A stretch of 44,086 nt of DNA from Mesotaenium endlicherianum (taxonomy: Eukaryota), in contig WELA01003469.1 of the NCBI GenBank assembly GCA_009602735.1, positions 142,166-186,251 on the forward strand, written 5' to 3'. Of the stretch, positions 1-35,600 are shown piece by piece. The notes below the pieces were generated by a model. That model saw only the letters and a program-made list of their open reading frames with translations. It did no database searches and was not told where the DNA came from. The position numbers and the translations under genes are program-made. Position 1 is the stretch's first letter, and the number at the start of each line of letters is the position of its first letter.

Positions 1-2835
1 AACGCACGTATGGCTTGTCTTATTTGGAGAGTGAGGAGTTGAAAACACAGATTGCAGAGCTGGAGGAAAATGGTTACATTTCTCCCAGTAAATCACCGTA
101 CGGCGCACCTATCCTATTTGTTAAGAAAAAGGATGGCAGTATGCGGATGTGTGTGGATTACAGAGCCCTGAACAGAATTACAGTAAAGAACAAGTATGCT
201 TTACCCAGGATCGAGGACTTGCTTGATACCTTGTCCGGCGCTATGGTGTTCAGTAAGATAGATCTCAAGAGTGGTTATCATCAAATCAGAATTGCTGAGG
301 GGAATGAACACAAGACTGCTTTCCGCACACGTTATGGACACTATGAGTTCAACGTGATGCCATTTGGACTGACTAATGCTCCTGCTACCTTTATGGGTGC
401 TATGAATGACAATTTCAGACCTTATTTGGATAAGTTTGTGAAAGTTTTCGTGGATGATATTTTAATTTTCTCTAAAGATGAAGCTCAGCACACTGAACAC
501 TTTAAAACAGTCCTGGACACTCTGCGGAAAAATCACTTATATGCTAAAATGAGCAAGTGTGATTTCTTTAAGGAAAATATTGAATTCTTAGGACACGTTG
601 TCAGTAAGGAAGGCATCAGGGTGGATCCTAAGAAAGTCCAGACCATACGGGACTGGCCAGTACCACAGTCTGTCTCTGAAGTTAGATCCTTCCTCGGGTT
701 GGCTAACTACTATAGGAGATTTATTGAGAATTATTCCACAAAGGCCAGTAAACTGACTGACCTTACTAAGAAAGACATCGGGTATGTGTGGGGGGAAGAG
801 CAGCAGGCTGCCTTCCAGACCCTTAAAGATGCCCTTTGTTCTGCCCCAGTGCTAGCCGTGTATGACCCCAGCAAACCGGTGCAGGTGGTTACTGATGCCT
901 CTGATTTTGCCATGGGTGCTATTTTGTTGCAGCCTGCTGACAAAACCACAAAGGATGGTAAGGTACGGCAGGAGTGGCATCCTGTGTTGTATGAGTCTAT
1001 GAAATTTAATCCAGCGGAGATTAATTACTCAGTGCATGATAAAGAGCTGCTAGCTATCATTCATGTACTCAAACAGTGGAGAGCATACTTACATGGTAAA
1101 GCTTTTAAGGTGATTACAGATCATCTAGCTCTGACCCACTTTCAGAAGAAGTCCAAGCTGTCGAGGAGGGAGAACCGCTGGAGCCAGATGCTGGAGCAGT
1201 TCCAAGTCCAGATCGACTACAAACCAGGGAAGTTGAATCCTGCTGATGCACTCTCTAGAAGACCTGACTTGCAAGAAAGGAACTTTAGTCAGCATACTGT
1301 AGATAAAGTCCTGTGTGCACTCACTTCACTAAAGGTGAAAAAGTCCTTCCTTGAACAACTTAGGAAAGCCTACCTTTCTGACCCAACATTTGAGCCCAGC
1401 CCCACTACTGGTATGTGTCGTGCTACCGCACTCGGGTATAAGCTCAAGGGAGGGGTCTGGGTGACTGAAACCACTTCAGGCAGGCTGAAGCTGGTCATTC
1501 CTAATAATTTGGAAATAAGGTCTCTCTTACTGAGTCAAGCTCATGACAGTCTCCTGGGTGGACATTTGGGGCAGGCCAAAACTGTTGGCAAACTGGCAAA
1601 ACATTATCATTGGGAGGGGTTACCCCGGGAGGTCTTGAAATACGTCAAGTCCTGTGACCAGTGTCAGAGAAATAAGTCTCGGCACACACCACCCGGAGGT
1701 CTCCTGCAACCGTTGCCCATCCCAGCGGGACGCTGGGAAACTATATCCATGGGCTGGGTGGTCTCACTACCAAGAACTGCCAACGGGCATGATTCAATAC
1801 TGGTAGTTGTGGATAAACTGACAAAGATAGTCATTTTTATCCCCACAACTGTCGAAGTGACTGCACTCGAAACAGCCAGACACTTATACAACCATGTAGT
1901 ATGCCAACATGGGCTCCCTTCTAATATCATCTCAGACAGAGACTCAAAATTCACCTCTAAGTTCTGGAGAGCTTTAATGGGGTTAATGGGAGTCAAACAG
2001 CTGCTCAGCACAGCAAACCACCCTCAGACTGATGGGCAGACTGAAAGAACTAACCGAGTTCTGCAGGAGGTGCTGAGAGCATATATTAACCAAAAACAAG
2101 ATAATTGGGATGACCTGTTACCTCAAATTCAGTTTGCGATCAACAGTGCGATGCATGCGTCAACGGGCAAGACTCCTTTTGAACTAAGCCTGGGTAGAGT
2201 CCCTAAGTCTCCTGTAGATGTGCTAGGGGAATCCTTAAGGGATTGACAACCCGGTCTCCCTCCAGTTAACTCAGGAGTTTGCTGACACCCTGTCAGAAGT
2301 CCAACGAAACTTGCACACGGCCCAAGAAAACCAACAAAAATACGCTAATCAACACCGTCGTGAACTCACATTTTCCAAGGGGGATTTAGTCAAACTGCAT
2401 TCTCAGCACCTGTACCTCCCTGGTGTGGTCAAGAAAAAGCTTGGCCCTGTCTGGGTCGGTCCATATTCGGTGGTCCGTCGTGTCGGTCAGAATGCTTACA
2501 AACTGAACATGTCAGCTGAATACAAGGGGCACCCGGTCTTTAATGTCTCCTTCCTGGAACCGTACATCAAAGGTGATACACTGTTCACAGGTCGGTTCCC
2601 TGTCCAACCGGGACCGGTCCCCGCTGTCCGGGACGGCGACCCTGAGGAATATGAGGTCGATGAGATTTTAGACGCTCGCTCGGTCCGTCGATCGTCTAAA
2701 TATGTCATGAAATACCTCATTCGATGGAAGGGTTACGATGCCTCTGGGGACACTTGGGAGTTTAAGGACCACTTGACCAATGCCAAAGGGGCGTTGACAC
2801 GGTTCCACCTTCGGGCCGCTGGAGTCCCTCCATAA
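1..2835 (+). pseudogene. pol: pol polyprotein (RT, RNase H, integrase, chromodomain), disrupted copy
   Basis: RT motifs [43 protein letters not shown] (447-458). RNase H motifs TDASD, KELLAI, TDH, ADALSR. Integrase zinc finger [23 protein letters not shown], and GPY/F module WVGPY. Chromodomain EYEVDEIL..YLIRWKGY..DTWE (~2644-2810). The first frame stops at 2244-2246 and the continuation frame is open from 2239, a +1 shift. The first catalytic Asp reads Gly (SMGW, codon 1752-1754). Confidence 0.93.
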
Positions 2836-3102
2836 CTGTCATTTCAGTTGACACGGGAAGGTGACAGGCGGTCCTGTCTCCATTTAAGTTGGAGGGGAAA
2901 ATATATGACAGTTAGTGAGCGAGAGCGATAAAAACACACTCATACGTTTATGTGTAGCGCATCGCAACTACGTCAACTTTTAGCAATCATCCTGTAAGGT
3001 AAACAGCAGCGAAGCCACTATACTAAATACTAACATACTTCCTGCAATCCCTATGACAAAGGTCCATATCCTACTAACTTGTGCCCTGGTTACATGTGCA
3101 GG

Positions 3103-4779
3103 ATGGCGCCCACCACACAAAAGGAGGACAGAAAGCGCAAGGCAGAAGAAGCCAGGAGGACAATGGAGCAATACCAGAAGGAGCTGGCGGCGACGTCCCT
3201 CACCAGGAGAGAACAAGAAAGGGTCCGCAAGCAACAAGAGGCGGCAGAAGAGGCACAGAGGAAGAAGGATCAGGAAGCGGAAAACCTCAGGAAGGCTGAG
3301 GAGGAGAGACAGAAGAAACAGCAAGAAGAAGCGGCAGCGGCAGAAGAGGAGAAAAGAAAAAAGATTGAAGCGGACAGACAGAAGAGCTTGGCCACTTACA
3401 GGTATACTGTGGTGGGTGGCCAAAACTTCGATAACCTGAAGGAAGCATTGCTGGCAGCCCAGGAGATCAACAGGCTGGAACAGACAACACTGCTACAGAA
3501 GGAAGGAGCTACAGCACTGGACAGGTACATCGAGACACACACCGGCGTGGTCCTTTACGAAGATTATGCTAAGATGGTGGGCTATACAGCAGAGCAGGCC
3601 CGGTATCTCGCAGATGATTCAGAGGACAAGCCGGTCCCCATACCGGGAATAGTGGGAGATCAGAGACTCATCCGGATGGTGAGCATGCGGCCCGATAGCT
3701 TTAAGGATACGGTATTCTACCTCACACTCCTGCCAGCTTACAATGAAGTTGAGAGAAGGAGCTGGGAGTACTTGGCCAGGGAAGCAGGACAGCAGATGTT
3801 CTCTCCCCACTGGTTCCCGTGTAAACTGAGGAAGGCTGAGCACGGACCCCAGTACTACCAGCAGCCAACAGACTGGAGGTGGATGACCGTCACAAATAAG
3901 AAGCAGGAGTGTGACCGAGCCCAACCGGATGACTTCCACTATGGCCTAGACGGCTATCTCATCCTACCACCTCACATTGCCCCTTGGGACCCCAGGCTGA
4001 ATGGATGCCTGAGCAATATGAATGCAGAGACCAAGGAACATAGGAGGAGGGGAAGAGAGTACTTCTCTAAGGGAAAGCATGCCTTTGTCAAATGGGCAAA
4101 GAATGCAGGCCGGATAGATATCAGTAGGCTGAAGGCCAAGCAACCTCCAGCGCGCCCTAAGAAAGGGAGGTCGGTAGACTACTCCATGTCTACTAGGGAG
4201 CAGGACGACTTAGTGGACGAGACCCCTACTCTCTCCGAGGAGGAGGATGAGGAGGATGAGGAAGAAGAACAAGGCAGAGGAGAAGCATCAGCAGCAGGTA
4301 CTCAGGATACCCAGGGACAGGCAGTGGCACTTCCTAAAGAACCACGATCAGGTGTGTGGAATGTGATCCCCGTTATGGCGACAACTGGACCCCGCGCTCG
4401 CTCCCCCAGCCCACCTGCCCAAGCAGGGGAAGAAGCTGATCTGACTGTACTGGGCAGCAGACACAGACAGAAATCCCCAGAGGACAGGGGTGCCAGAAGA
4501 GGGACACGCGGGTGGGCCAGAGGTATGCCAGCCTCCCCCTCCGCTCAGGGGCATGTACCTCTAGCCAATGTATTTCAGCATCCTACTGGAATGCCTGTCT
4601 ATGTGGGAATCAACACCCAAGTGGTTGAAGAGCAGGCCACCATCCTCCGTTCTCCTCGAGGGCCAACTTTAGAGCAAACAGGGTTCTTTAGAAGGCCAGC
4701 TGACAGACCTAGAGGGCTGTCCAGATCTAGGTCCAGATCTCCGTCTCCTGATTCTGAAGCCCCAGGAACAACCCCTTAA
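3103..4779 (+). CDS. Extra ORF (ORF3) of the retrotransposon, ~558 aa, unknown function: N-terminal charged coiled coil, aromatic-rich central region, acidic and RS/Pro-rich tail
   Basis: 1.7-kb uninterrupted ORF between the pol stop and the PPT. In-frame ATGs at 3094 and 3103; TACTAAC (3072-3078) and TGCAG|G (AG at 3100-3101) lie directly before ATG 3103. No signal peptide or hydrophobic TM segment is visible. Confidence 0.8.
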   Translation: MAPTTQKEDRKRKAEEARRTMEQYQKELAATSLTRREQERVRKQQEAAEEAQRKKDQEAENLRKAEEERQKKQQEEAAAAEEEKRKKIEADRQKSLATYRYTVVGGQNFDNLKEALLAAQEINRLEQTTLLQKEGATALDRYIETHTGVVLYEDYAKMVGYTAEQARYLADDSEDKPVPIPGIVGDQRLIRMVSMRPDSFKDTVFYLTLLPAYNEVERRSWEYLAREAGQQMFSPHWFPCKLRKAEHGPQYYQQPTDWRWMTVTNKKQECDRAQPDDFHYGLDGYLILPPHIAPWDPRLNGCLSNMNAETKEHRRRGREYFSKGKHAFVKWAKNAGRIDISRLKAKQPPARPKKGRSVDYSMSTREQDDLVDETPTLSEEEDEEDEEEEQGRGEASAAGTQDTQGQAVALPKEPRSGVWNVIPVMATTGPRARSPSPPAQAGEEADLTVLGSRHRQKSPEDRGARRGTRGWARGMPASPSAQGHVPLANVFQHPTGMPVYVGINTQVVEEQATILRSPRGPTLEQTGFFRRPADRPRGLSRSRSRSPSPDSEAPGTTP

Positions 4780-4877
4780 GGTGACACGCTGAAGAGGCAG
4801 TCAGTAAGGGAGGCTGGTCAGGTTCAGTTCCCTTATTTAAAATTTCTGCAGTTTAATGTTGTCGAGGCGACAACAAG

Positions 4878-4892
4878 TTAAGTTGGAGGGAT
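4878..4892 (+). other. Polypurine tract (PPT) abutting the 3' LTR
   Basis: TTAAGTTGGAGGGAT immediately precedes TGTAATG, the standard PPT position. Confidence 0.8.
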
Positions 4893-5610
4893 TGTAATGA
4901 ATCAGTATATTAGTGGATATAATATTCATTTAAATATAATAGTTAATTAAGTTCAGCCTGCTGAACTTTAGTTAATAGTCAGTCTGCTGGACTTTACATA
5001 ATTATCAGTTTGCTGACTCAGTCGAAAGCAGCAGGCTGAAAGTCCATATAAGTCAGCTGCTGACACATTCTTTGACAGCAAGCTGACTTCCGTGCTCGGT
5101 AGCAGCGAACTGCCTTGATATGCATTTAAGTGCGATATGCTAGATGAATAGCCAGATGACATCCCTATGATGGATGGCTATTCGGGATGATGGGAGATGG
5201 CGGTGGATTTGGTTAACCGAGGTCCTACCAACGTGGTTAACTCCCGGGTAGGCGGTGCCATCGCACTGACCGTTGAACAGTAAACTCATTCCATGTACAT
5301 ACGCTAGGCATTGCTCTCGAGTTCGGCATTCGGAAACGAGGCCAACTCTCTTGTACAGCTTACTGAGAGAGATCTGAATCCAAGGCGAGAAGCCATTGAT
5401 ACGCACTGTCTTCTAACCTTGCTTATGTATGAGTTTACTGATTTGCATCATTGATGCTAGTTTACTCGCATTTGACTTACGAGTATTATTCTATGCTAGT
5501 GTATTGTCCTTTGCCGTTTAACTAGTTAACGGAAATACCATAAGATTACTTGCTGATGTAAAGATCTTTATTAATTGTCAATCGCCTATTTGGTAAGTCG
5601 ATTCATTTCA
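4893..5610 (+). repeat. 3' long terminal repeat (718 bp)
   Basis: Starts TGTAATGAATC and ends GATTCATTTCA (5600-5610), a 10/11 inverted match with TG...CA termini. TATA-like CATATAAG at 5045-5052. Confidence 0.85.
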
Positions 5611-6560
5611 ACCAATGACCAAAAAACTTGGTGTCAATTTGGGTCCCAAACATTGGGCTGGTGTAGCAGCTAGGATACTAAATGAATTTCATATTTGTAA
5701 AGTGCACTGTCGTCCTTACATCTAGATAAATGCTGGAACAAATCAGGACCTAAAAATAAGTTGTACTTTTCCGGATATTGTGCTGAGAAGAAATGTACTT
5801 GTGAGACCTCACACGTTTTCCTTGTAGTACCAAAAAGTGCACTAAAAAATCTCGAAAAAATCGGAAAAAGTACATTGCCAGATTGTTTACTCAAAGTAGA
5901 TTCAATATATATATGGCTCTTATGTACCACATAAGCACTGATTTTAGTATGAGCATTCAAAGATAGGCAATTGTGGTGTCCGTTTTGGTCCTATAGGCAG
6001 TGAATCTAGTGTTAAAGCTCACTTCACGCATTGAAGTGTGCTACTCTTACAAAATACATGATTTTTATTTTGAACAACGCTGGTACATGAATCAACCTAT
6101 TCTAAGAAGTATAAATGCCTGGAGACTCTTCGTAAAATGACCATCAACTTTAGAAAGAGAACAGACACACCATGGAATATAATTAACGAGATTTAATGGA
6201 CTTGAGGTGTAACGATCTGAGCTTTTTAGGCATAATTAGGATATATTTCTAATTTCCAAAAATACGTTACACTTTTGAATCGATGAAAGATTGCACTGTG
6301 ACGAATTTCTCGCCACACACTTGTGCCCACAACTTCCGGTCGATTGGCGAAACGACTAGCAATTTTAACGATAACGTATCTTTGATACTTTGCAAAAGAA
6401 TATTGTGATTAATCATAAGTTTTTTTGATTAATTACAAACGATTAATTAAGAACTACTTAACTTATTATGACTTTCATTATTTCGGATAATGTCTGTCAC
6501 AATGTTTCGACTTAACGACGATCGCTAAATCGAAAAAAACCCGAATCGGTGACTCAAGAA

Positions 6561-11380: not shown

Positions 11381-14300
11381 ATGGGACGCCTTTTGACTAT
11401 CGTATTGCTGTGTGCCATCGTAAGCTGCGCCAGTATCTTACACTCAGCGGAAGCAAGGAATGACGCAAGTTCGAAGCCTGCTAAACCTACTAAACCTGGT
11501 GCGTGCTCAGGACACGATAATGACGCCGTAGCTGTGCGCTGTCAATTTCTCTTCAATCTGTTGTGTACACCGAATTTGGGCATGCAGCCGCAAGGCTGCA
11601 AGTGCTGTGCATCCTTTGTCCCAACTGGTTTTGCCATCACTTCTTGTACAATGCTTGAGGTTTACAACCTCTCAAACTTAGCCTTAGTTTGAGAGGCTGA
11701 CATTTGATAACCTCTATCTTGCCTCTGAGAAGCGAGAAGGCAATAACTTCTATGAGAGTGCGTACGTGACCTTGTTTGTGACGGAGTCAGGCGTTTGAGG
11801 TTCACTCAGAGTTGAATGAATTAAATGCCAGATAGCGCCTTTGACGACGAACTTCCACGATCACCGCACTTCGAGAACTTTTCCAAGCTCACACCGTGTG
11901 TTCTGCTGCATCTGCAGTTTGCAGTGCGACGTCATGCCCCGCCAACTCAGTGTGCAAAGTGACTGGTAACACGATCAAGTGCTCCTGCGCTGCCGGCTTT
12001 GGCGAGAGGAGAGGGCAGTGCCTCTCAGCTGGTACACCTCGGACATCCCTTCATCGCGATGCATCCCTTCTCCTCCTCATCCTGTCTTGCTTCGGCCGTC
12101 CATACTGCCAAATTTGCACGGAAGCCTAGTTGGTGCTGTCTCTCTGGGATGGCTACACCCTTATAATTGCATAATTGTATACATAGACGCCTTATTGCTT
12201 TGGAAGCCTTGATTCAAGCAGCACTCATCTACTTTGGCGTAGTCCTTCATTTGCACCCCCTTCTGATGATTGTACCAGCAGCAGCAAGCGACAAGGAGCA
12301 AGGGCTTGCAAGTTGCACTGCTGCCGCTTGCTGACATGCGGCTGTCCATGCGTGTGCGTGCGCGCGTGCATGCAGCGTGCATTTCGGCCAACTGCCCCGC
12401 GAACTCGACGTGCGCGACTGGCAAGAACAAGAAGGTGGCGTGCCAGTGCAATGCCGGCTTCAAGAGCGTCCGGGGCCAGTGCGTCACCCTCAGTGAGTGC
12501 GCCACAGCTCACCTCCACGACTCACGACCCTATAGCTGCTTGTTTGATTGCGTTCTAGCAGCACGCTTTCTGTACCGCAAGGTACGGCGGTTTAGTCCGG
12601 GCTGGCATTGCACGCATGAGAAGACACAGATAATTGTCTCCTGTCATTTATCTCGAGTTTGTTGGGCCTAAAAACTCCTGTTCGACTGTGTGCACCTCAA
12701 AGAGCATGTGTGTGTGTGTGTGCATCTCCTGACCGTCGCTCCATGTGCGCGTGCAACTCCCCCGCCGCTCCCCCGCCCGGCTAATGTGTGAGCAGACCCC
12801 TGCGCCAGCACCACATGCCCGACCAACGCCGCGTGCTTCAACGAGGCTGTGGGCGACGACATCAAGGCCAGGTGCCGCTGCGGCGCCAACTTCGTCCTCC
12901 AGAACGGCGTGTGCGTTCCCCTCGGTGCGTGCGTGCGTGGCGTGAGCGCTATTCCTGTCCTTTAAGCTCCCTCAGCTTCTGAGCTGCTCGTCAGCGATTG
13001 GACGCGTTGCACGCTGGGCCCCCCTCGAGCACCTGGCTCATTTCTGGACGTGCACGCTCGCTCGCTTGCATGCTGCCATGAATGCCACAACTGGCACGCT
13101 CCCCCTCGCACCGTACCTGTAGCTGCTTCAGCTGTGAGATCTTCCCGGCCGGCTGTGCTGGAGCATGCCGCGTGTCCTGCGTTGATCCTACTGCTGGGAA
13201 CAAATTGCAGATTGAGGAGGCGGAGACGGTGATGTATTTGATCTTGCCTTCATTGCTGCCCCGATTACTGCTGCTGAATGTCTCTTTTGCGGCCCAACAG
13301 ATCCAGCCTCTGCCAGCTGACTAACTTGTACTTCTACCAACTGTCGTCCTCCGTGCTTGTGCCCTTCGTTCCGTGCGGTCTGCTGTGCAGACCCCTGCGC
13401 CAAGAAGGTGTGCCAGCCCAACGCGGCGTGCACCGTGACAGGTGGCAAGGCCGTGTGCTCCTGCAAGTCCGGCTTCATTGCCAAGGGCGACGTTTGCGCT
13501 GTCCTCTGTGAGTACATGACCCTCCCTCACCATCCGTGCCTCAGCCTCCTCCTCGACCTCTACCTCCCCTCGCCTCGGGAGTATTAAGCCTATCTGTATA
13601 AATGGAGGTGTTGGTGGTTGGATAGTCCGCAAGCATTTCCTCCACCACCAGTCTGCAGTTAGCTGGAGCACTGCCATTGTGAAGCACCAGCATCATCGTG
13701 CTAGGAGAATCGAGGCCGGCCTTTACATCCCCGTGCCGCAGTTCAATGGCCAATCATAACCCTCGCTACAGCTGGCTACAAGCAAGAGGACCTGTCGGTC
13801 GATTGACGCGTCCGCTAAACGGCGAGTGTGGCATGTTGGCTGGTGGTGGCGTGGTGGCGTGGATGCTTGCAGCATGTGCGGGCGTGAGGTGCCAGGCCAA
13901 CGCGGCGTGCTCAGTCGCCAGCGGCAAGGCCGTGTGCAGCTGCAAGCCCGGCTTCAAGGCCAGCAGGGGCCGCTGCATTGCCGCTGGTACGCCACCAGCC
14001 CCCCTTCCCTCCCTCCCTCCCACCCTCCCTCCCCTTTCTTCCTCTCTCCCTTCCCACTCCTTAATCACCTCTGTGCTGGGCTGTGCTACGAGCTGCTGCC
14101 GCTGCTGCTGCTGCTGCTGCCCGCAAGGCAACCATGCACACAGCGAGCTGGTGGGGCCATGTTGTGAAGGAGGGGAGAGGAGGCTGAGAGACACCTGTGA
14201 CTGCAGTGCACATGCGGGGCTCCCCGACACAAATGTATGCACGGCGGGACCCTCTTGTGAGGCAGCCAGAGGGGGCCACGACTGACTTGATTGCACTCGT

Positions 14301-15819
14301 CTATGTCGCTGTGCCGCACGCAGACCCGTGCGCGAGCGCCACCTGCCCCGTCGACTCCACGTGCTCCGCTGTCAACAACATGGCCGTGTGCACGTGCAAC
14401 GACGCCACCTTCACCATCGTGGAGGGCGTCTGCACTCCCCTCGGTCAGCCCCTTCTGCCCTCCTGCCTCTCCTGCTTCTGCTCGTACAACGCGGTTTCTT
14501 TTTGCCCACTCTGAAGATGGGTAATTGCCTCAGCGCCCCACTCCAGTATACAGGGTGGGATGCATCTTTCAGAAAAGCGCCCCTAGTAGTTTGTTTGTGA
14601 AGGTCCCTTCTCGCCTTCCTCTGTGGTTTGACAGCTGGGTGACGATGGTTTTGGAGACGGCGGGCGCAGATAACGGAGGCGACGACGTCAGCACACTCTA
14701 CCTGGCCGGTCACAATGACGCGAGAGCAGCTGTGGGCGTGGCTCCTCTGGAGTGGGACGACGCAAGTAAGTCGGCCACCCTGTGCACCTTTCACACCCCA
14801 GCGCTGCTTGACTCGATAGGCACACGTACATGCGCATGTGATCCTTTATCTACACGCGTGATTTGTCCGTGGAACTCTCATGCAGGCCCTGCAGGCTGCC
14901 ATGGCTCTCAGTAGCTGGCCTTAGAAGCAGTGCCGTTTTTCTTCATTTGTTTTTTTGTTTATTTTACCCTGAATGAGGTAACAAAGAAGCAGACAATGCG
15001 CCGCCATCTTGCAGCAGGCACATGCACGTTGCATGCATTGCGGCTGCCATAGCCTCCAGCCGCAGTTGCCTTTGCATCTCTCCAAAAAAGAAACCTTGCC
15101 CAGCTGGCTGCTCTTGGCCCCTCCTCCTCCTCGCGTCTGACTTGTGCCATGTGCGTGCGACCTCCGTGCGTGATTTCTGTTTTCCTTCTCCACCTGGCAG
15201 TTGCCGCCCAGGCCACGTCGTGGGCGGCTAGCCTGGCCAGCAGCGGGTGCGAGCTCACCAACGGCGACAACGCCGACCTCGGCCAGAACCTGGCCATGGC
15301 GGACGGCGCCATGACCCCCGAGGATGCGGTGGCGGAGTGGGTCGCGGCCGCAGCTCTCTACACTCCGGCTGCCTACCCCGGCGGCTGCAGCGAAGCTGAC
15401 GGCGCGTGCGACTACTACACTCAGGTAACTCCAGGCCCCAGGGGAGTGTGCGAGGCTGCTCACTAGGCAGAGCTCTCCACTGCGGGGTTGTTACTGTGCC
15501 GCTGCAAGCTCAGCGTTAGGATGCATCCACTCCACTACTTGGCTCCAGTGCATGCAGAGGGAGTTTCGAAGCATGCAATTCCTCCTAGTGCCACGAACCT
15601 CTCTCTTGGTTATTTGTGCCTTGCATTGCGCTTTGAAAAGGGGCTGGCCTGGGTGTTCTGTGATCTGATTGGCTAGCTTCCTTGCTGTGCGAGGTGCAGG
15701 TCATATGGGGGGCCACCACAAAGGTGGGATGCGGGTCTAGCTCTTGCGCCAGCGGTGCGACGATCCACGTGTGCGACTACAGCCCCGCAGGCAATGTGGA
15801 TGGTGAACTGCCCTTCTAG
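11381..15819 (+). CDS. Secreted protein with six EGF-like repeats and a C-terminal CAP (PR-1/SCP) domain, ~422 aa, 10 exons
   Basis: Exons 11381-11498 (signal peptide MGRLLTIVLLCAIVSCAS..), 11918-12031, 12376-12492, 12796-12924, 13391-13507, 13873-13986, 14324-14443 (each a 6-Cys C-x4-C-x5-C-xn-C-x-C-xn-C unit), 14670-14765 (YLAGHNDARAAVGVAPLEWD), 15201-15424 (GQNLA..W..YTQ), 15700-15819 (VIWGATTKVGCG..VCDYSPAGN..PF*). All introns are GT-AG and the frame is continuous (1269 nt). Confidence 0.9.
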
Positions 15820-17954
15820 GGTGCCCAGCGGCTCCCAGGCCCACTATGGGATGCCATGCAGCAGGGAGGCACATTCCCGTGTCTGACACCAATGTAATTC
15901 CCTGAGGCGTGCATGAAGTGACGGAGAGACTACACTCATCCAAGTTTGGTAAAGTAGCAGGTTCATGCGTCAGCTTGTTTTAGGCATTGTAAGCATCTCT
16001 TCATTCTTCATAATTTTTATTTTTATTCTTTCACATTCTCGGTAAGTATAGTTGTCTGGGAGGATTGGCTCTTGCATGCTTACTGGAAGGGTCAGGACTC
16101 CACACAGAGTTTAGATTACTCAGAATATGGGCATAGGGCAGAGGGCTCATTGGAGGAGCGTAGTTAGCATTCCACTGTAGCAGTGGTGATGGCATAGATT
16201 CAAGGCTTTTAACTGAGTTATTTGTCCAAGGTATAGATATCGTTAAATACCTCTGCTAAAAACCTCGACTGTGGCTGCACCACTGTTGCCAGGTGGAGCG
16301 TGTTATCTGGTATTAGAGAAGTAGTGCCTTCAGCTCTATGCTTAACAACACTTGTATATGCAGGTTATAGATTTATTGAAAGCACTTACTCCCCTTATGT
16401 ATCTGGCATGTATTGCTTGCTTCTGTCAGCTGTATTTATACGGGAAGGATGAGGGAAGAGCGTACATTTATGATGATTACTGTATTAGTTTCTTAGTAAA
16501 AAGAGTAGTAGAGATGTCCATTGTTTGAGGTGATGCTAATATCATGAGCCAAAGTTTGCTCTATCGTTCAGATAGAGAAAGGGCACTTATTTCCTTCCCC
16601 TAGTGCTCATATGTGACTAGCCTGTGTAATAGCTTTTTGTAATACAAACAGGGCTCTATAAGAAAGTTACGACTAAGGAAAGTAAATGGGAGTTAGCTCT
16701 CGCTCACTTGAGAATTACTGACCATGGATTTGTTAAGTCCCCCCCTGCTTCTCTCCCCCATGCTGACGCTCTTCAAGGGCAGATACTCGAGGCTTGGCCT
16801 TTTCCCCCTGCTTGTTCTTGCCCACCCTGCTCCTGCGTCCTCTTATTACATGCCTAATAAAATAAATCGAAATTTATACACCAGTTCCAAGTTCCTTTGT
16901 CCAAGATTTTACAACACACATGCAGGCGTGAACTTTAAGCTGACTTCCACGTCAACCACTCGTGTCTGATTTTATTTTTTCACTCAGTGCCACTTTTATG
17001 CAACAGTGTGTAGTATGTAAGGCATGACACAACGCAAGCACATATGTTAAAGCAGCTATAAAGCCCCAGAGAAGAGATGATGCACGTATGCAATGTTCAT
17101 CTTCTCTATCTCAAAAATAGTCCAGGTAGAGAATTTCAGGACCTAATGTCTTTAGGGTACACATTAAGCAAATCTTCACGACACTTAAACAAGTAGTTTC
17201 TCTCAGACAGGTCAACCGTCGCCTACATTTTTCTCAGACGTTCAAACATTAAGGCCCACTTTCCTTGCTCGCCCAGGAATCATATTCATCATGGCCTCAA
17301 AAGAATCATCATAAGTTGAATAAATACTGCACATTGTAGCTTTAATTGTCCAAGAAGCGCAGGCACATCTTCATCCATCTCTGCTGGACAACAAATAATT
17401 CAGACATCTCTTCAATAAAAAACTGGAAGTCAATGCTGTCCCTTCCAAAGCAGCAAGGTGCACCATGCACATCACGAAAGCCACTGCAATTTAACAAATG
17501 GAGGGCATAGAAAGCATTATTGATACATTAAGGGAGCAAAATAGTAAAATCGAGAGACTTGTCCAGATTATTTATTTCCATTTTTTGACCCCTTGGCTTT
17601 GAATAGCTTCGTTTCCCAAAAGTGAGCATGCAACAGTTGAAATATTTCATATCCGAAATCAGGGTCGCACAGGAGGAAAGCAAAGATGCGGACCATGCCT
17701 TCTTGCTGCATTAATAGCCCGTCGACCACAATATCAGTCAACTGGCTGGCATGCCATGAACCCAAGGGACACCACATGGAGAGCTTCTCCATTCAGCCTC
17801 AGCAGAACCTCCAACCACAGACTCCGTGGCAATAGCATCACAGGCAGCCTTCACGCTCGTTGCCTGAAGCTCTTCCGGGCTGTCTTCAAGTCATGCCAGC
17901 CGCACATCTCTACCAACACTGGGACATGGTGCCTGAGGATCCTGTAAGGCTAGC

Positions 17955-20294
17955 TTAGTAGCGTGAGCTATAATCGCCCCCGCCTCCTCCGTAACCACCC
18001 CCGCTGCTGCCACCGTAGTCCCCACCCCCACTGCCGCCATAACCACCACCACCTCCTCCATAGCTGCGACCTCCACCGTATGAGCCTCCGCCACCACTTC
18101 CAGTGGGGCAGTCCCTCGACAAGTGACCCTCCTCACCACATGAGTAGCACGCTCGGCTTCCGCCACCTCGGCCACCACCACCCCCTCCGTAGCTACCCCC
18201 TCCTCCTCCATAGCTACCCCCTCCAGATCGGCCTCCGTAGCTGCTGCCACCGGCAGATGGATTGGGGCATTCCCGAGAGAAGTGACCAGTCTGCACCACC
18301 AACCACCCAGGAATAATCAACCAACAGACACTCACACTGGTGTTGACTACATGGTGCAGTAAGGCTCAAACTCGTCAAAACTGATGTGTCTTGAATACAT
18401 AATGGGTCAGCAGCATGATAGTCCCCAGCAGCATATAAGCAAGGCCACTAGTCAAATGAAGCCTCAAAGCTTAGATCACCACCTCGGCAGCAGTGCAGCC
18501 CTCAAAGCATGCTGAAAGCAAGTAAAAAATGTAAACCCGACAGAAATCTCGTCCCATGTCTTTTGCATCAGATTACAGGTCTCTCCAGAGATCCCCCCTG
18601 AAAACTGGCTAGTCTCCACAACAGGCGAGCTCACAACTTGCATGGAACTTCAACAGATTCTCCTTCAGCCAAACACGTGGTCCACCTTGTGCAGGACCGC
18701 AACAGAATGTACAACATCACCCGCTGTCTGCACTCTCCTCACAACAAGCGGCCGCTGAGGAAGATTTCGTCTTGAGGCAATCGCTTGTTGAAGCTCACCA
18801 TCACCTTCCAAATCGAGCTGTTTGTCAAGTTTTGGAACCCTTTGGTTGGTTCGTCCAGAAACGGACCCGTGACCGCCCTGATTTTGCCACCCAAAAGCTT
18901 CACTGCTCAGATATCACAAAATCTATGAGACAAGTGGCAAAAAAGGGACAACACGCTTACCTCTCCACAGTTGTAGCAGGCGCCACCTGAGCTTCCACCT
19001 GCGCCCCCTCGTCTGCCTCCGCCCCATGCATCGCCATACCCCTGGCGATCGCCACCAGCTGGAGCCCTGTCTCTTCTCGTGAAGCTGCTGAAGCCATCCT
19101 GGTCACCGCCAGCACCTCCACCTCCTTCCCGAGCCTCTGCCTCCCGGCGCCTCTCTGAAGGCCTCTTCCCTCCGCCAGCTTGAGACTTCTCTAGTGCCAT
19201 TTTCTGTACAGAGGGAAAGGAGGAAAAGGTATAAAAGGCAACTTTGAAGTGGGGTGAGGAATGCAGCTCAAAGCGCATGAAAATGTGTGCATTTCGGCAC
19301 AGTATATGCCAGTCAATCCACTGCAGGTCCACTAGCAACAAGATACCACGGAGGACAAAAGATGTACTTTCTTCCACGGGCACCTCATGCACCAAAGTGT
19401 AAGGGACTCGTGGCTAGCCCTTTGAGCATACCACGTATTAAGTTCGAATTTGCCAATTGCAAGTCCTCTGCTCTGTGCTTGGCGTAAGCAGACAACTAAA
19501 AGTACTGCAGTCCCCTTCATCTCACAGAACCACGTAACTCAAAGTTGTTTACCTCAAATGACTGCAGAAGGTCATCAAGTTTCTTCTCCTTCTGCGAAAC
19601 TTCCTCCTTCAACTCCTTGGATTGTAGAGGATCCGTAGCTTTCTCAAGCTCGCTCTGGGCAAATGCAAGCTCTGCCTCGGCAGCCTTTTGCTCCTCTCTT
19701 TGAGCCTCGCTGAGCATAAGCTGGACATAACAAAGGGAAAGGACCAAGATAATCAGTATCCAAAAGAGAACAACTTTATGACATCATAGACTGATGGTGC
19801 CATTTATCGTTAAAAATAAAGGGGGTCAAGGAAGAAGCACTTCAAGGTAACATGCCAGAGATGCACCTACCAATTTATGAGAGTGTCAAGGAAGAGGATG
19901 AGAGGTACATGCACACAAAAACAGACAATATGGACAAGGAACACAAAACTCACTTTGGTCTTCCACTCCTTGCTAGCCAGCTCTTTCAGCACTTCATCCT
20001 CCTTCTTCCCCTCCCGCTCAGCCATAACCTGTTCACGAGGTCTGGCTGCTCCGAAAGGGCTTGGCTGTACAGGCATTCCGAAATGACCGCATGTCAGTTT
20101 AGGGGAATCACAATGTTAGACCAGTTACGAATGGCACGCAAGCTGTATTCTACATTAAAGGACTTGAACAATTCATATACCTTCGAAGACTTGGCAGATG
20201 AAGCTGCCGAAGCATCTGCGTTTGCACTACGAGGCTGAAGCGACAACTTCGGCCTGCCTGCTGAAACGGCATCGGAATCCTCGTAGCTGCTCAT
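17955..20294 (-). CDS. Protein with plant eIF4B-type motif, coiled coil and Gly-rich region with two CCHC zinc knuckles, ~323 aa, 5 exons
   Basis: Exons 20294-20181 (MSSYED..RPKLSLQPRS), 20064-19954 (PSPFGAARPREQV), 19720-19553, 19203-18961 (..ACYNCGE), 18290-17955 (TGHFSRECP..CYSCGEEGHLSRDCP..YGGG repeats). All four introns are phase 0, GT-AG. Confidence 0.85.
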
Positions 20295-20729
20295 CTTCAC
20301 TAGGCAACAACTTCCAGAATTTAGCAAGGTATAGCAAGGCAGTCTCAAAAAAGACCTCGGAAGAAACTGCAATCGATGTAAAAAATAAGAGCGGCTATAT
20401 CAGGGCTTTCGGATACTTTTCAGAGGAGGCCTCGTGCATTCTCGACGCAGCTATATTGACAGCAGCCACCGATGTGCGATATTTCGAACACAAAACTCTT
20501 TACGTGCGTTTCGAACGTCGAAGAGAGCCCACTGCAAAGCGGATCCTCTAAGGGTCGTTGTCGGGATGATAACCAAATAGGATCCCTCTTCCAGTGAGTT
20601 GCATGGGCGAGTCCACCAATGATGAGAAAACCGCAGAGGAGTTCGCGGTCACGTTGGCAAACTCCATAGGCAAGGGTTTTGACAAATATTGCAGAATATT
20701 GTATGCATACCAGGCTCCACTCAGCTTTA

Positions 20730-26028: not shown

Positions 26029-27268
26029 GGCCCCTCCTTGAGAATCACAAACAGCAAAAGAGACAGATTTCGCAAGTCAAGGTTGACGCGAGTAGGAGCC
26101 TAAGACCATCCAACTACAGAGATACTTTGGCACCAGAGATGCTGCATAGCAAAGAGTAGGAAAGAAACGGCAGTAAGAGATAGACCAAGTAACGACATGG
26201 AAATGAGCCAGTCACTACGCTGACCACCCCGCAAAAGTCTCACTCCGCACACACTACAAACACGACAGACTTTAAGATGCCCAGGCACCTCTCAGCCGTC
26301 TGTGTTGGAAGACACTGCTCCGCCTTACATGTCTCGCTCTCAACATCCCGAAGGACAAACATAGCCTGTAGCTAAACACAAGACCCACCACGAAAACTAA
26401 TGCACAAGCACAAGAAGAAACGGCACACAGCCATCTCAGTTATAAGTCACACTCCTTATCCATATAAAACAGTCAGATGACGTAGTCCTCCTGAATCATA
26501 CACCCCGCTGTCTACCAGTACTGTAACGTGTACGTCCACACACAGCCCACACGCGTAAAACCACTACACGCGCCGCGCCTCACGCTTGTTCTGTTCTGCC
26601 TCTCCCTTCAGCATTTTTTTCGCCTCCCTTCTTCTGCACTGAGCACCACTAAGCCCACCCCCTAGAGCCTACTCTTACCACCAGAACAGCACAATTGCAG
26701 GGGCACAGCCTCACCTACTAGTTTCTAGCTGGGCTCATCATACAGATGTCCTCTCTCGCTCTCGAGCATCCTACAGCACCTTTTGCAGCCCACAGGGGAA
26801 GGCCCTGATGCAGATGCGCTCACCCAGACACCCAACATGTGCGCCAGCTACATGCAATGCTACGTGCCCCCCATCCAGCCAGGAGCAATCTACGACCAGA
26901 GAGAGAAGCAAGGCACAGGGTAGGCGGGCCAGGAGCATGGCAGGTGCCACAGAGAGCAGCTGCTGCTGCTGCTGCAGCTTGCAACGCCTAAGGCGAGCGG
27001 CGCCTGGGGCGAGGGCTGGGGCTGCGGCTGCGCTCTTTGCTCGCGCTGCGCTCCCGCGACACGCTCCTGCCACATCAAACCCCAGGGGAGGGAAGAAGAG
27101 TCAGCGCCAGAAGAGGACATGCACAGAGAACTCCAGACTGGAACCAGTCGGCCAAGTCCTTATGTACTCAGCACTGCCGTACAAGCCCACAGCTGTCCAA
27201 CCAGGAGCAGCCACGGGAAATACGCGCGTTACGAGCACGTCAGGGGCCAGGGGCACGGCACGGCGCTC

Positions 27269-30200
27269 TTACTTTGTGTAGGAGCGGCGGCGAGCGGGCG
27301 AAGCGGAGGGGCTCCTCCTGCCGGGGGACACGCTTCTCTTGCGGGGGGACACGCTCCTCTTGCGCGGGGACAGGCTCCTCTTGCGGGGGGTCAGGCTCCT
27401 CCTGCGCGGGGACAGGCTCCTCCTGCGGGGGCTGATAGCACACACCTCACCGATTCTTGTAGCTTTAGCCTGGGGGATCATCCACAAGAGACCTTGGCAA
27501 GCGGGAGTTTCCCATAACCCAGAGACAACTTCCGGATGGATTGGCAAGTCCAACGACAAGAACAGAAGCTGGAGACGAGAAGCCCACACCGCACGACACC
27601 GAGACCCAGAGCAGCTCCGCGTTCCTCACTACCTTGATTCAATATGCAACAGTCGGAGTGGACATGTGGGGCCGCCAGCACAGACACCCTGTGAAGGAGG
27701 TGGCACCAAGACCCCAGGAGCCAGGAGGAGGCAGCTCTGCACCCGGTTTGCGCACGGCAAGCACCCCTACCCCAAACATGCCAAATACGTGCGAGCGCGT
27801 GCCATCTTCCGCCCCAACATAGAGCGCGTGCCATCTTCCGCCCCAAATATGCCCCCAAGACAAGACACTTCCCGCCTACGAGGCACCAGCCAGGCAACAG
27901 GGCAACATCCTGGACTGCACACTCAATCCTCCTCTCAGCACAGCACGGCATAGTGAGCAGGTCCCAGCCTCTCAAGGTGCCCCCTCCCAGAGCATCACAC
28001 GAAGAGCACACCCTGGCATCGATGCATCAAATGAAGCCGGGAGGAGAAGGGCATGCATCCAGAACTCCACCTGCGGCTGCGGCTACGGCTGCGGCTGCTA
28101 GGACGGGGGCTGCGGCTGTGGGCGCGGCGGGGGGGTGGGCTTGGACTTCTGCCAACACGCGCACGCGGACGACCGTTCAAATCCCGACCCCTGTCGCCCC
28201 CCGGCGGACTCCCGCTGCGACTGCCGGTCCGACTTCGACTCCGACTGCGACTGTAGCTCCTCCAGCTGCGGCCAGGGCTAGGGCTGTAGCGGTGCAAGGG
28301 GGGCAGGCTTGGGGTGCGCCTGTAGCGGCGCCTGCCAGGGCTGTAGCCAGGGCTGGCGCCGCGCCTGCCCCTCAAGTAGGGGCTGCGGCTGCGGCTGACG
28401 CGCCGGTAGCTGTCGCTGTAGCGGCTTGCATACCTGTCAAAGGGGCTACGGCTGCGGCTGCGACTGCGGACGGGACTAGGGCTGTAGTAACGGCGACGGC
28501 CGCGGGGGGGGCTGCGGTAGGGGCTGCGCCTGTAGCCCCCGCCAGAGTATCTGTATGGACTGCGGCTGCGGCTACGAATGGGAGTGGGACTGGGACTTGC
28601 TGCATAGCTGACGTAGGGTGGGCCAATTGGACACCGATGACGCCATTCACAACCCCACAGAGACGCAGAGTCCGCCGGGGGGAGAACATAAATGCAGAGG
28701 TGGAAGGGTGGGTCATTGACAGCAGACACGTTGAGAGGTACCGACACACAAGGAGGTAGCCGCGACGCACACACAGGAGCCCATGAGAGGCCCGCAGCGA
28801 CGCAATTAGCAGAGACCACCCATATCACCGGACGGACAAAGTCATGGTCAACAATGGGAGACGACATGACAGGTGCCCGGTCAGGTGGTAGTGGGGCAGG
28901 ACAAGTGGACCCCGTGATAAAAGGAGCCCCCAAAGCCCAGAGATGGCACCCCAGTGGCAACACAGGGGCAAGATGAAGACAGGCACATGCGCAGGAGGAG
29001 AAGCATGTGCAGCGTGCGCGCCGGCAACAATCCCCCCCCCACAAAGCCCAAAGAAGAAAGGCAGGTATTAGCGCTGGTGGTACCACGGGGGCACAGCATC
29101 AACTCTGTCCGTCTGCTTTTCATTCCAAAACTCATATCAAAACAGTTCCGGACCATATCATGCGCAAAAGACATTTCCAGCACTTTGAGGAGGAGCTGGT
29201 CAGAACTGGTCACCATATGCGCCCCGCCCCGCACACGACCCCAAGGAAAGGGACACCATTCAGAAGCTTTGAGGCATAAAACATGCAGCTCTGAAAGACG
29301 CCGCTGCACACTGTTGCAAGGGATGGCACACCGTGCACAGGAAAATAGCAACTGGAGGTACTGGGTGAAAGGTAACGGGAGCGTGAGGAAGACATAGGGG
29401 AACAGGAAGGAGAAAGACCAGCAGAGATCACGGAAGCGGGCGAGGAAGAAGGGCTTCGCAGAAGGGGGTACTAGTGGGGGGGCGTACCGGTTGCGGCCAT
29501 AGCTAGGGCTGCGGCGATGACGGGAAGGAGGGCTCCTGCTGCGGCTGCGACTCCGTGCCCCGCCGCCCCGGCCCCCGCTTCCCATGCCACCCGGCCCAAC
29601 GCGCATCCTGCACTCGCGCGCAAAGTGACCGGGTTCACCGCACTCATAGCACTTCATGTCCTCCCCACGTCTGGGACCAGGGCCACCTGGCCCACGGGAC
29701 AGTTCAACACGCCAGCCATTCTTCCCTGTGGCGCGGCACACACACGTACAGAGACGAGGAGAAGGAGTGAGTTTGCAAGAAGTCACTCTTCTACGGCAAC
29801 TGGTGACACCATTGCCATGAGGCTCATTCCAGCGGCAAAATACATGCAGGAAGTCCAAAGACCAAGGTGGCCTGCCAAACCAAGAGAGCTGTAGTTATAG
29901 ACATGACGAGGCAAGGGGGGGAGGTTACATAGATTCCAATCACCCACGTAATATACCCTGTTCGAGCCCTGGAGCTGAGCACAAAGGAGGTTAAGTGCTC
30001 CTCCTTAGTCCTAGTTGACTGCTTGCACCAGTGCCACCGGCTCCAGAAAAACAAATCAGAGCGATTATAAAATAATCCTAAGACTGCAAGGAAGAGATAC
30101 TGATTGGTCCACTGTGTATAACACCAAAACCATGTAAGCACCCACACTGAAAGAAGAGACACTTCCTCAATACACACACAAGCAAGGCCAAGGGAATAGA

Positions 30201-31240
30201 AAAGGACGTACGCACCATTCTTGGCACGGATGGCATCACGACCATCGCGAGGATCGTCAAATTCAATGAACGCAAATCCAGGAGGCTTGCGTGCCACCCA
30301 CACGCTGCAAATGTCCACACCAGAAAACTTACTGGTTAGCGTGACTTACGCGTCACGTGCATTCCATCATATATTTCTCTTAACCTTGTACGTGATCATG
30401 CACCCAAACCCTGCCAATAGCCTGTCTCTCAGCACCGTAATATATGATTTGCTATTTCAACCATCCTTGCCAGATAGTTACTCAAACATATATTTAAGCA
30501 TCCTCGCCAGGTTCCTTAAAATAAATGTAAGTTTGGTCCAGATACGAGGGCAAACATAAAACGTTGTCTAAACTCTCCTTCCCTGATGGGTTGTGATATG
30601 CTGAAGAAAACAAAGAAAGAACGAAAAACGACAACACGCGTTCAACCTGTACCCAAAAGCAGCCCCACGCATACTAGGAACAATCCGCAAGAAACACGTG
30701 GTGGCACTTGGTTGCAGCCAAAACCATGCCAAAAGGGAACAGATCAGATGCACTGAACCAATGAAGCGAGGAACTCCAAAAAGATAGCTCAGTGTATATG
30801 AGTCGATGAATCTGTATACTCATGGCTGCTACATTCAAAACTGACTCCAACCAACTGACTGCCCTACAATTTCTTGACTCTAAGTATCTTCGTGGGAGCA
30901 AAGCCTGCAGTTCCATCACGGTAAATTACCATGTCATAACATATGACTATCAGCTAACTGTAACCTCCATAAAAAGCGGCAAAAGAAAAAACCACAATCG
31001 TTTTACAAAAGCTTACTGTCACACTTATGCGAATGCATTTCTTTAAAATCGGTACAAAGCGCTCTCGGGTAGTAACATGTAGATGAAGGAAATAACAGGC
31101 AACTTCAGTCACGAACTTCACGAACTTCAGAGAACTATGCTGTAGACAAACCTTCTGAGGACTCCGAACTCACGAAATTCGTCTTCAATGTCCCGCTCAG
31201 AAAGCCGGGGATCGATGTTACCCACATACACGCGCTCCAT
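27269..31240 (-). CDS. RSZ: SR splicing factor of the RSZ subfamily (RRM, one zinc knuckle, long RS domain; SRSF7/9G8-like), ~371 aa
   Basis: Exons 31240-31152 ([22 protein letters not shown]), 30304-30216 ([17 protein letters not shown]), 29725-29488 ([24 protein letters not shown]), 28607-28071 and 27431-27269 (RS/SP repeats). Intron phases are consistent. The 3' end may be extended by a further exon. Confidence 0.92.
27310..27431 (-). repeat. Coding 21-bp minisatellite encoding (S/T)PR(R/K)RS(L/V) heptads
   Basis: Translation [42 protein letters not shown]. Confidence 0.85.
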
Positions 31241-32670: not shown

Positions 32671-35600
32671 CTACCACACGGCTCGGATGCCAGAACTTTC
32701 CAAAAACTGGTTGGTGTGCCACCCGGTCTGCTTGAGCCCCTCCAGCAGTGGGGGCAGCAGCTTCTCCATGCGCGCATATGCTTCCTCCAAGACATCCTCT
32801 GCCCGCGACACGGGCGCATGTGGGCCCTCGCTGTCCGCGCCTACCCTTCGAGCGCCCCCCGCGGGCTGTCTGCTGCTCCCAGGAGAGTGGCGCTGGGCAA
32901 GCCCAGGCGCGCCTTCGCCGCCCGTCCTGCTTCCCTCCGTTGCCCTCGCATGGAGAATCTCGAGGGAACAGGTGGCGAGCAGCCAGCCCCTAACTGCGTC
33001 CAGCCCCGTGGCATTGCGGTGCAGCACCAGGTCCGCCGTCCGCGCGGCGCCGCTCGAGAAGTTGACGAGAAAGCGCTCGCCCCTGAAGCGCTGGGCGAGG
33101 CGGGGCACCTCTGAGGGCGCCCCCAGCGCGCGCTTGAGGGGCGCGCCAACGCGCACGCTCCCCGACGTGCGGTCCAACGAGGACCCGAAGAACAGACGCT
33201 CGCGGTACTTCAGCTCCCCCGGATGCGCCACCTTGCCAGTCTGCACCACGTCCACACGCACGCGCACACGAACACGCACAGGGCATGCACGTACGAAAGC
33301 ACGCGCATGCACACAGTCATACAGGTGTTAAAACGGGCACACAACGCCCCAACAGGCTAACGGCTTAAAGGACTGGTCTCTCTGTCTTTGGTGCGCGTGC
33401 GTGCCACCACAGGAGAGGTTGGCGGACGGGCCAGCTAAATGGGGTGCGGTGGAGGTAGTCAGTCAACAGCTCCTCGTGTGCCTTCTCTCTCTCCCACACA
33501 CACACACGCACGCGCGCGCGAACACAAACGTGGGCGCGCGCGCGCAGAAGGAGCACAGGTGAGCCATGCTCCTGGCACGACGCTCATTATGCCGTTGCTT
33601 CGGCTGTCACTACCAAGATACGCTTCAAGGCGTGTGCCAACCAGCGGCTGGCTGCCTGTGCACGTGCGCGTGCATGTGCAAGTGCGTCTACGAGGAGAGC
33701 TACCAAGGAGTGGGCACACATGCACTGCCTGCCCGTCGCGCATCCACGAGCGCGGGCGTGGGCATGCGCAGGGGGGCACACCCCAGGCTGGCACGTTTGC
33801 CCCTGGTGCTGCTGAATGGGCTTGCAGCCACGGCACATTGAGTGCATATGGAGAGGAGGAAGTGCCAGCTGGCACCTTTTTAGCTCAGCTAGCCTCACGC
33901 AGTTGCTAGTGAAACGAACAGGCCTGCACAGGGCCTGCCCCTCTAGAAACTCCTTGGAAACTCCCGGCACACAGGCCAGCGAGGCATAGGAGAGAGGGAG
34001 GTGGGGATTGGCGAGTGAGTGCAAGGGGAAGCCTGAACGAGGAGGAGAAGAAAGAGGAGGAGGGGGAGGAGGGGGACCTGGAGGTAGTCCTGGATGAGGA
34101 GCGCGGTGCGCTCCGCGTTGAGCGTGTTGACGGGCGCTGCGCGCATCTCCTGCGCCACGCAGAACACGTGGACGGTCGACAGCGCCGCCCCCATCAGCAG
34201 CTGCTCCCCGCGCTCCACCCCCGCCCCCACCCCCATCGCCGCCACCCCCATCACCACTCCCGGATGCTGTCAGGTGCGAGGTGCGCAGCAATATCTGCCC
34301 CAGCCAGCAGGCGTGCTGTGCTGAGGCAGCACCAGCAACGTACCCGCTTGAGGGCAGGCGGGCAGTGTGCAGGTAAGCTGCCAGGGCCCAAGACAGATGT
34401 CTGTTTAGCCAGCACTCTCTCAGCTGCTCCAGCCGCAGCAGAATTTACTATGCTCCACTATTACAGACTGAATCAAAACTTGCAAGGGGTGGACTTGAAG
34501 GGGAAGGGGGGGNNNNNNNNNNNNNNNNNNNNNNNNNNNNNNNNNNNNNNNNGGGGGGGGAGGGCTCATCACATGACTAAAAGGGGGGAGGGGGTGAAGG
34601 CAGGGCCCCTCAGGGGGAGGGGCAGCAAGAGTGAGGAAGAGGAGGTGGAGGAGGAGGGTAGCGAGTAGGGGGAAGGAGTGTAGCGAGACGAGCACAGCCA
34701 GTACCTTGCCGGGGGTGGAGCGACAGAGGGAGGAGGAGGCCAGCTGGATGCCCAGGCCCATGCCGGCGATGTTGGACAGCACGGAGATGGCCTCGCCCTT
34801 GGCGTACAGGTCGCTCAGGTTGTTCTCCAGCGCAAACGACGAGTAGATGGGCAGCCTCGTGGCGCGCGCCGACACCAGCGCCGCGCCCTGCCGGGCAGGA
34901 GGCAGGCAGGCAGGCAGGCACGCACGCATGCGTCAGGAAGAGAGAGGGTGAGGGAGAGAGTGAGAGGGAGAGAGCCAAGTGAAGCAGCACTGACATCCCT
35001 CCCACTTTGGCCCACTACCCTCCGGCCTATAGAACAGCACCAGGCTACTATGCAATGTCTGATGCCCCTCCCCTCCAGTGTGCCATCATCCCCCGCCAAC
35101 AGCAACAAGGTGCTCCGTACGTTACAACAGCCACTAGCTATCCCCAAATCCCCTTTTCATTGATACACACTCGCAAGAAGAAGGCTGCGAGGGAGCGGAG
35201 AGAGCACGCCCAAGGACAGCGGTGTGGTTTAGGGTTTCACACAGCGGTTCACCCAAGGACAGAAGCGGCCGCAAAGCCTCTAGAAGCAGGGGGGAGGACG
35301 TTGAGCGTGTGCTTACCTTGGCCATCTGGGCGAGACCAGCAATGCCCAGGAACTGCTGCGGGCACAGGGGCACCAGAATCTCCAGCATGGCGCCCACGTC
35401 AAACATGCCGTCCGCTGCCAGGTCACCACCAACGCTCACACACACAGAGGGAGGGAGAGAGAAAGAGAGGACAGCGGCCCAGATCAGATACGTCCACCGT
35501 ACACATAGTCAGCTAGCACCATCTCCCCCCCCCCCGGAGTTCCGACGGCCCCCCTAAAGAGGATACTGCTTTGATAAAGTCGCCACCATGGCTTCTGTCA

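Follow-up and report, generated by a model that had tools for sequence, protein, structure and literature searches.

Extra open reading frames (ORFs) at the 3' end of plant chromoviruses have been catalogued by clade: a sense-oriented frame is found in 18% of 782 Tekay elements, and none is listed for the cage-type clades of algae and mosses, Chlamyvir (44) and Tcn1 (1,500) (PMC6317226). Their expression and role are described as an open question in the accessible part of PMC7264820, and for the ORF3s of rotifer elements a spliced mRNA is taken as typical in the available portion of PMC5408684. Plant LTR retrotransposons are generally without introns, according to the accessible text of PMC12786077, and an extra polypurine tract (PPT) lying just after the chromodomain is recorded for Bongo3 of Beta vulgaris in that of PMC3605345. 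Here we analysed a 44,086-nt stretch of DNA (hereafter, the window), in which a chromodomain retrotransposon carries a third frame, ORF3, between pol and its 3' LTR (Table 1).

A high-copy chromodomain element and its ORF3

The element is a high-copy chromodomain Ty3/gypsy retrotransposon, its host being most likely Mesotaenium endlicherianum, since an exon of a neighbouring host gene is 100% identical to a protein with the label Mesen1, taken here to denote this species. The 5' end of pol, and likewise the 5' half of the element, lies outside the window. Within it, the domains follow the chromovirus order of reverse transcriptase (RT), RNase H (RH) and integrase, with a chromodomain (PF00385, above cut-off) at the integrase C-terminus, in which aromatic residues presumably occupy all three cage-like sites, as judged by eye against the HP1 pattern. 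A TG...CA LTR with a preceding PPT was found as well, and in seven RNA reads of run X23 the LTR end is followed by a primer site, marking the context of the 5' LTR copy; from its motif, we take this site to be of the tRNA-Met type. The frame of the first pol part is broken near 2233 by a frameshift in the window copy; 16 contigs of run X1 carry a different, longer stretch there, and the break is therefore likely specific to this copy.

Table 1. Features of the element in window coordinates.
Feature	Positions	Strand	Remarks
pol part 1: RT, RNase H, integrase zinc finger and core	3..2246	+	Pfam RVT_1, RT_RNaseH, Integrase_H2C2, rve
pol part 2: integrase SH3 and chromodomain	2239..2835	+	Pfam SH3_Tf2-1 E 2.5e-16, Chromo E 2.2e-9
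55-nt non-coding block, near-unchanged in the diverged sister family	2843..2897	+	ends in the extra PPT
Candidate relic LTR 5' end	2903..2918	+	loose ends behind 2897
TATA-like GATAAAA, candidate internal promoter	2927..2933	+	imperfect motif, at a site of length variation
GT-AG intron of 103 nt in the 5' leader of ORF3, very likely real	2999..3101	+	X1 contig joint skipping 103 nt, GT..AG (cut +2), depth 473.5
Local splice donor	2999..3004	+	6/9 matches to the U1 consensus
Upstream perfect branch motif	3028..3034	+	next AG is a weak AAG at 3061; TGCAA near-acceptor at 3043-3047
Downstream branch motif, canonical distance	3072..3078	+	branch A 24 nt before AG
Splice acceptor TGCAG	3097..3101	+	
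ORF3, 558 aa	3103..4779	+	open frame; no transmembrane segment
3' PPT	4878..4890	+	
3' LTR, 718 nt, TG...CA	4893..5610	+	loose ends of reads and contigs at 4893 and 5610/5611
GTAAGT near the LTR end, without sign of donor use	5593..5598	+	12 nt before the LTR end

The summed contig depth of run X1, which is not a copy number, is 687 on the flank but climbs into the hundreds of thousands across the element, and the family is therefore very abundant. The nearest pol relatives found are at most 54% identical over RT-RH, and a tree of this region with 49 rows, built from 48 of the 109 usable hits (at most 8 per host group) and holding no clade reference elements, gave the window's node a support of 0.47 and did not assign the element to Chlamyvir, Tcn1 or Tekay. 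Runs carrying four other organism labels (X5, X6, X8 and X9-X14) contain 0.68-0.76 of the element's words, near letter for letter where compared; most simply, a highly abundant repeat was carried over at a low level, spread between species being the alternative. X5, X6 and X8, in which the depth is low and hardly a letter differs, were taken to contain this one family at a low level, and we rejected them as evidence of cross-species conservation.

Host genes occupy other parts of the window. One at 11381-15820 has repeated cysteine-rich (EGF-like) exons and a CAP-like end, as judged by eye, and one of its introns apparently has a GC donor at 14762. Another at 32671-40196 (minus strand) matches Pfam PF04884, which we take to be the RUS-like family, and is 100% identical to a Mesen1 protein, and at about 17990-20300 and 26600-30350 (minus) a glycine-rich RNA-binding-like gene and an SR/zinc-knuckle splicing-factor-like gene were recognized by eye.

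ORF3 is laid out as a charged, coiled-coil-like N-terminus, an acidic tract, one or more basic clusters and an RS/SP-rich C-terminus, and each of the other five frames over it holds 9-30 stops. No homologs were found among 1.84 billion representatives (HMMER), by word search or at metagenome loci, no Pfam family scored above cut-off, a feature search gave scores of up to 0.84 only, which is chance level, and single-sequence structure prediction yielded no usable fold (pLDDT 33.6). The highest hydropathy over 19 residues is 0.73 and that of the N-terminal 30 residues -1.78, revealing neither a transmembrane segment nor a signal peptide; furin sites (RxK/RR) and N-glycosylation sites (NxS/T) both number 0, and no fusogen homology was detected. 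Since it has no transmembrane segment, signal peptide or furin site, ORF3 is not an Env, and it failed every test for an Env or env-like protein. Its composition suggests a nuclear regulator instead.

A probable leader intron and copies that lack it

The initial annotation had proposed that splice signals could produce a subgenomic mRNA for ORF3, naming a local donor (AAG/GTAAAC at 2999), two perfect TACTAAC branch sites (3028-3034 and 3072-3078), an acceptor (TGCAG/G, ending at 3101, with an ATG at 3103) and a second donor near the LTR end (TG/GTAAGT at 5593-5598), and all of these motifs are present as described. The two TACTAAC copies are the only ones on the plus strand of the window, and of 20,000 dinucleotide shuffles 0.05% yielded two or more within the 267 nt that separate pol from ORF3 (P about 0.0005). 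Likewise, among 1,382 YAG sites on the plus strand, the acceptor at 3101 is the single one with a TACTAAC upstream. A GT donor is thus combined with a branch A 18-40 nt upstream of a YAG, as in U2-type introns, the downstream motif likely being the one used. The fold predicted for the leader RNA was no better than that of shuffles (z 0.0).

For comparison we took 14 introns of neighbouring host genes, eight placed by eye and six solved against protein P0124, junction-wise matching having solved 6 of 7 junctions of the RUS-like gene. Their donors match the consensus at 4-8 of 9 positions, their lengths range from 191 to 837 nt (n=14), and none of the 14 contains a perfect TACTAAC; against this background the intron of the element is short, its donor is of middling strength and its branch motif is unusually perfect.

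Evidence for removal of the intron came from run X1, in which one contig has a joint at 2996>3100 (cut +2), equivalent to the exact loss of 2999-3101 (contigs compared over 1-5800). At 473.5, it is the deepest among the 15 joints listed of 82, the other 14 having depths of 70-180 (median 85), and among these 15 it alone has GT..AG ends. A random deletion with three letters of microhomology at this pre-named pair is expected about 0.0003 times among 82 joints, or 0.003 times counting short deletions only. The joint comes from one contig of one run, with 23 letters on its shorter side and three letters of microhomology. As X1 contigs cover the whole element and its flank, the longest reaching 29.6 kb, the run is probably genomic, its status as DNA being a guess, and it is possibly the window's own source. 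Because the joint skips exactly the GT..AG stretch, the intron is very likely real, a judgement that holds across all the models weighed below, and the acceptor at 3101, as had been proposed, is likely used, with the local donor as its partner.

Precise removal at GT..AG, as expected of a U2-type intron, was thus seen in one contig of one probably genomic run, and the intron-less joint was not seen in four other runs, all of them shallow (depth 6-61). At position 3025 it accounts for 0.18% of the summed depth, which is a minimum because overlapping contigs were added together. With none found in the four shallow runs, intron-less copies are rare, constituting a small minority of the family. 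Contigs of run X15, whose kind is not given, read through the intron unspliced. A precisely intron-less DNA copy is the expected product of reverse-transcribed spliced RNA, as set out in the accessible part of PMC12786077, and in a few copies spliced RNA has likely been copied back into DNA.

Across 2931-3260, the contigs that span this interval show a single letter of difference from the window, a sameness of the signals that reflects the youth of the family. In a diverged X15 copy, with six differences in 213 nt, the five that are listed all fall at 3078-3108, and both a YAG and a YTRAY branch are kept despite these nearby changes, which may be read as weak support for the splice signals. 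The same copy has lost the ATG at 3103, a caution on this start codon; an in-frame ATG inside the intron, at 3094, has no listed change. Conservation of TACTAAC and AG among copies had been offered at the outset as a check; in so young a family near-identity is expected, and we rejected it as proof of function or selection.

Two further observations concern this region. An out-of-frame ATG inside the intron opens a frame of 128 codons (3053-3439) whose product would begin with hydrophobic residues and then turn strongly basic; splicing would remove it, and it could dampen translation of ORF3 from unspliced RNA. In addition, an X15 contig of depth 3 leaves the window at 3087 and continues with a match from 4561 onward (3086-4558, minus strand), and the skipped stretch reads CT..AC, that is, GT..AG on the minus strand, possibly representing either an RNA that was spliced in antisense over ORF3 or a deletion where three letters of microhomology occur.

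A putative internal promoter and the expression of ORF3

Upstream of the intron, 13 letters at the end of the non-coding block (2884-2896) are identical to the 3' PPT (4878-4890). All four runs compared contain a variant that departs from the window sequence immediately behind 2897, where it has two letters and then TG, and its next 13 letters are identical to window positions 2906-2918 in X5, X6 and X8 (13/13; chance about 4e-7) and similar in X15. At the place of this TG, the window has TA. Contigs of X5 and X8 that presumably represent this variant keep the block at 2843-2897 but are changed in most of the codons at the end of pol; 30 letters of this sister family are visible behind the first PPT. 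A 3' LTR usually begins with TG behind a PPT, and here this pair stands 50 nt past the stop of pol, for which reason we read the stretch as a probable relic LTR: the sister family probably ends right after the first PPT, and the window family would have kept a decayed LTR start, with TA for TG, ahead of ORF3. The 5' part of an LTR carries a promoter, and the relic may accordingly serve as an internal promoter of ORF3. Roughly 120 extra nucleotides are found at 2931-2933 in about half of the copies (X15, with loose ends in X8), apparently reflecting two variants of this putative promoter region. Alternatively, the sequence shared with the sister may be a diverged cassette common to both, or the extra PPT could be a central PPT, such as those treated in the available part of PMC7197481. 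Between the leader (2899-3102) and the present LTR no similarity exceeds 10 letters, and a 19-mer of the shared block retrieved eight metagenome loci, all chance matches without retrotransposon protein hits, and 0 viral contigs.

Expression was followed in three polyA runs of 2026 with the same species label (29.0 M records; reads placed at ≥90% identity). These placed 539 reads on the element, only 13 of them at least 99% alike, and 0 of the 539 fell on 2911-4850, so that ORF3 and its intron have no read coverage, and the proposal that ORF3 is actively expressed finds no support in them. Over the 3' half of pol (1553-2910) the first mate lies mostly on the plus strand, which in usual stranded libraries denotes antisense RNA, and the reads over pol stop at 2910, where the sister family diverges. 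Read-through from solo LTRs and from older or sister copies would explain these reads, most of which are antisense under the common strand convention, and a family that is silent in these runs is suggested.

We favour, with a probability of about 0.5, a chromodomain retrotransposon in which ORF3 stands behind a host-spliced intron at 2999-3101 and is carried by a separate mRNA from the internal relic-LTR promoter. Transcription would start at about 2905-2975, yielding a short first exon, the intron and an ATG one base into exon 2. The intron-less form would arise when spliced RNA is reverse-transcribed, the template being a full-length RNA that is spliced now and then or, through a template switch, a co-packaged ORF3 mRNA; as intron-less copies are rare, the packaged genomic RNA would mostly keep the intron. 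More speculatively, ORF3 could act as a nuclear accessory protein that regulates the processing, export or silencing of the element's RNA. An extended version, which we consider unlikely, holds that the former 3' LTR, its PPT kept and its TG end lost, was demoted to an internal promoter driving a spliced, orphan, nuclear and RS-rich regulator, like Rev and CERV or like Tas, which would let the intron-containing genomic RNA be exported or shield that RNA from silencing and help the family to its very high copy number, making the element a 'complex' retroelement.

A rival close to the reading offered initially is an env-like strategy, in which a transcript from the 5' LTR undergoes a long splice to 3102 that removes gag-pol, its donor being the GTAAGT at the LTR end or a site in the leader or gag; as a variant, the long splice would reach an acceptor just upstream of 3102 and the 103-nt intron would then be removed. 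The local donor would be a minor alternative. We regard this strategy as somewhat unlikely, and the present data leave it unsupported. No second GTAAGT stands on the plus strand of the element within the window, and this one scores 7/9, but at least one GTAAGT occurred in 14.6% of 5,000 shuffles of the LTR, placing the motif at chance level, and the element has five more GT sites that fit the U1 consensus just as well. Spliced subgenomic RNAs for a 3' ORF are described for Athila and Bagy2 in the accessible parts of PMC7197481 and PMC7264820. Here, the sole junction found uses the local donor, no joint or loose end at 5592 was present among those listed, and the seven X23 reads (strand not given) pass unspliced over the LTR end and on into the primer site. 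DNA contigs would not be expected to contain the product of a splice upstream of the primer site, since such an RNA cannot serve as a template for DNA, and the 5' half of the element lies beyond the window. Antisense read-through probably accounts for most of the reads at the LTR end, which have no bearing on donor use.

It is decidedly unlikely, in our judgement, that the intron is real but spliced only at low frequency on full-length, LTR-driven RNA, with no separate mRNA for ORF3, which would then be a passenger or poorly translated. The three polyA runs showed no ORF3 RNA, and splicing of packaged full-length RNA is the simplest source of intron-less copies, following the classic intron-loss logic of Ty given in the available part of PMC12786077, where partial splicing in a non-coding spacer is also cited for Ogre. 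Against this, an acceptor one base before the ATG and an open frame of 558 codons are what one would expect of a gene with an mRNA to itself. Eukaryotes, moreover, translate the third cistron of an unspliced RNA poorly. Very improbable, finally, is that no splicing occurs, the motifs being accidental or a captured relic and the contig lacking 103 nt a product of DNA deletion or of template slippage at the 3-nt microhomology. Three letters do fit either side of the joint, which was seen in one contig only, and the family holds many other deletions; however, both ends of the joint coincide with the predicted GT and AG (chance 0.0003-0.003), no listed joint is deeper, and the two perfect branch motifs are themselves improbable by chance.

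Comparison with known systems

In the freely accessible literature covered, we found no description of this element, of an intron before a chromovirus extra ORF or of intron-less copies of such a region. The algal chromovirus described here thus has an accessory gene that is an orphan and not an Env, with an intron in its leader that is likely real. With its rare intron-less copies the element offers a natural marker of intron loss, and it sets a family that bears the ORF alongside a sister diverging from it behind the PPT, in a host close to land plants. Should the relic-LTR promoter prove true, it would represent a simple route to an independently expressed accessory gene without an env-type splice.

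In its order of RT, RH, integrase and chromodomain and its tRNA-Met-type primer site, the element resembles the plant chromoviruses (REXdb clades); it shares sense 3' extra ORFs with Tekay, and an extra PPT after the chromodomain with Bongo3. As in Athila, Bagy2 and the env of errantiviruses, pol and the 3' LTR enclose a sense ORF that is immediately preceded by an acceptor. Athila and Bagy2, however, are non-chromoviruses, and their mRNAs are spliced from the LTR transcript and their proteins often transmembrane, according to the accessible parts of PMC7264820 and PMC7197481, whereas the present element has a short local intron and an ORF3 without a hydrophobic segment. A spliceosomal intron in the non-coding spacer of a plant Ty3/gypsy element is also found in Ogre, as described in the available part of PMC12786077. 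The Ogre intron parts gag-pro from rt-int, in contrast to the element's intron, which lies in the leader of a third gene. Splicing of the Ogre intron is reportedly partial. As a putative nuclear and regulatory accessory ORF expressed from an internal promoter, a spliced mRNA or both, ORF3 may be likened to tas/bet of foamy viruses, which have an internal promoter (PMC13220597, accessible part), to gene23 of maize Grande, which has its own promoter but is antisense, unlike ORF3 (PMC7264820, accessible part), and to CERV of C. elegans Cer1, a spliced export factor (PMC10309623, accessible part). None of these three shares sequence similarity with ORF3, and the likeness lies in the promoter and function that we would ascribe to it.
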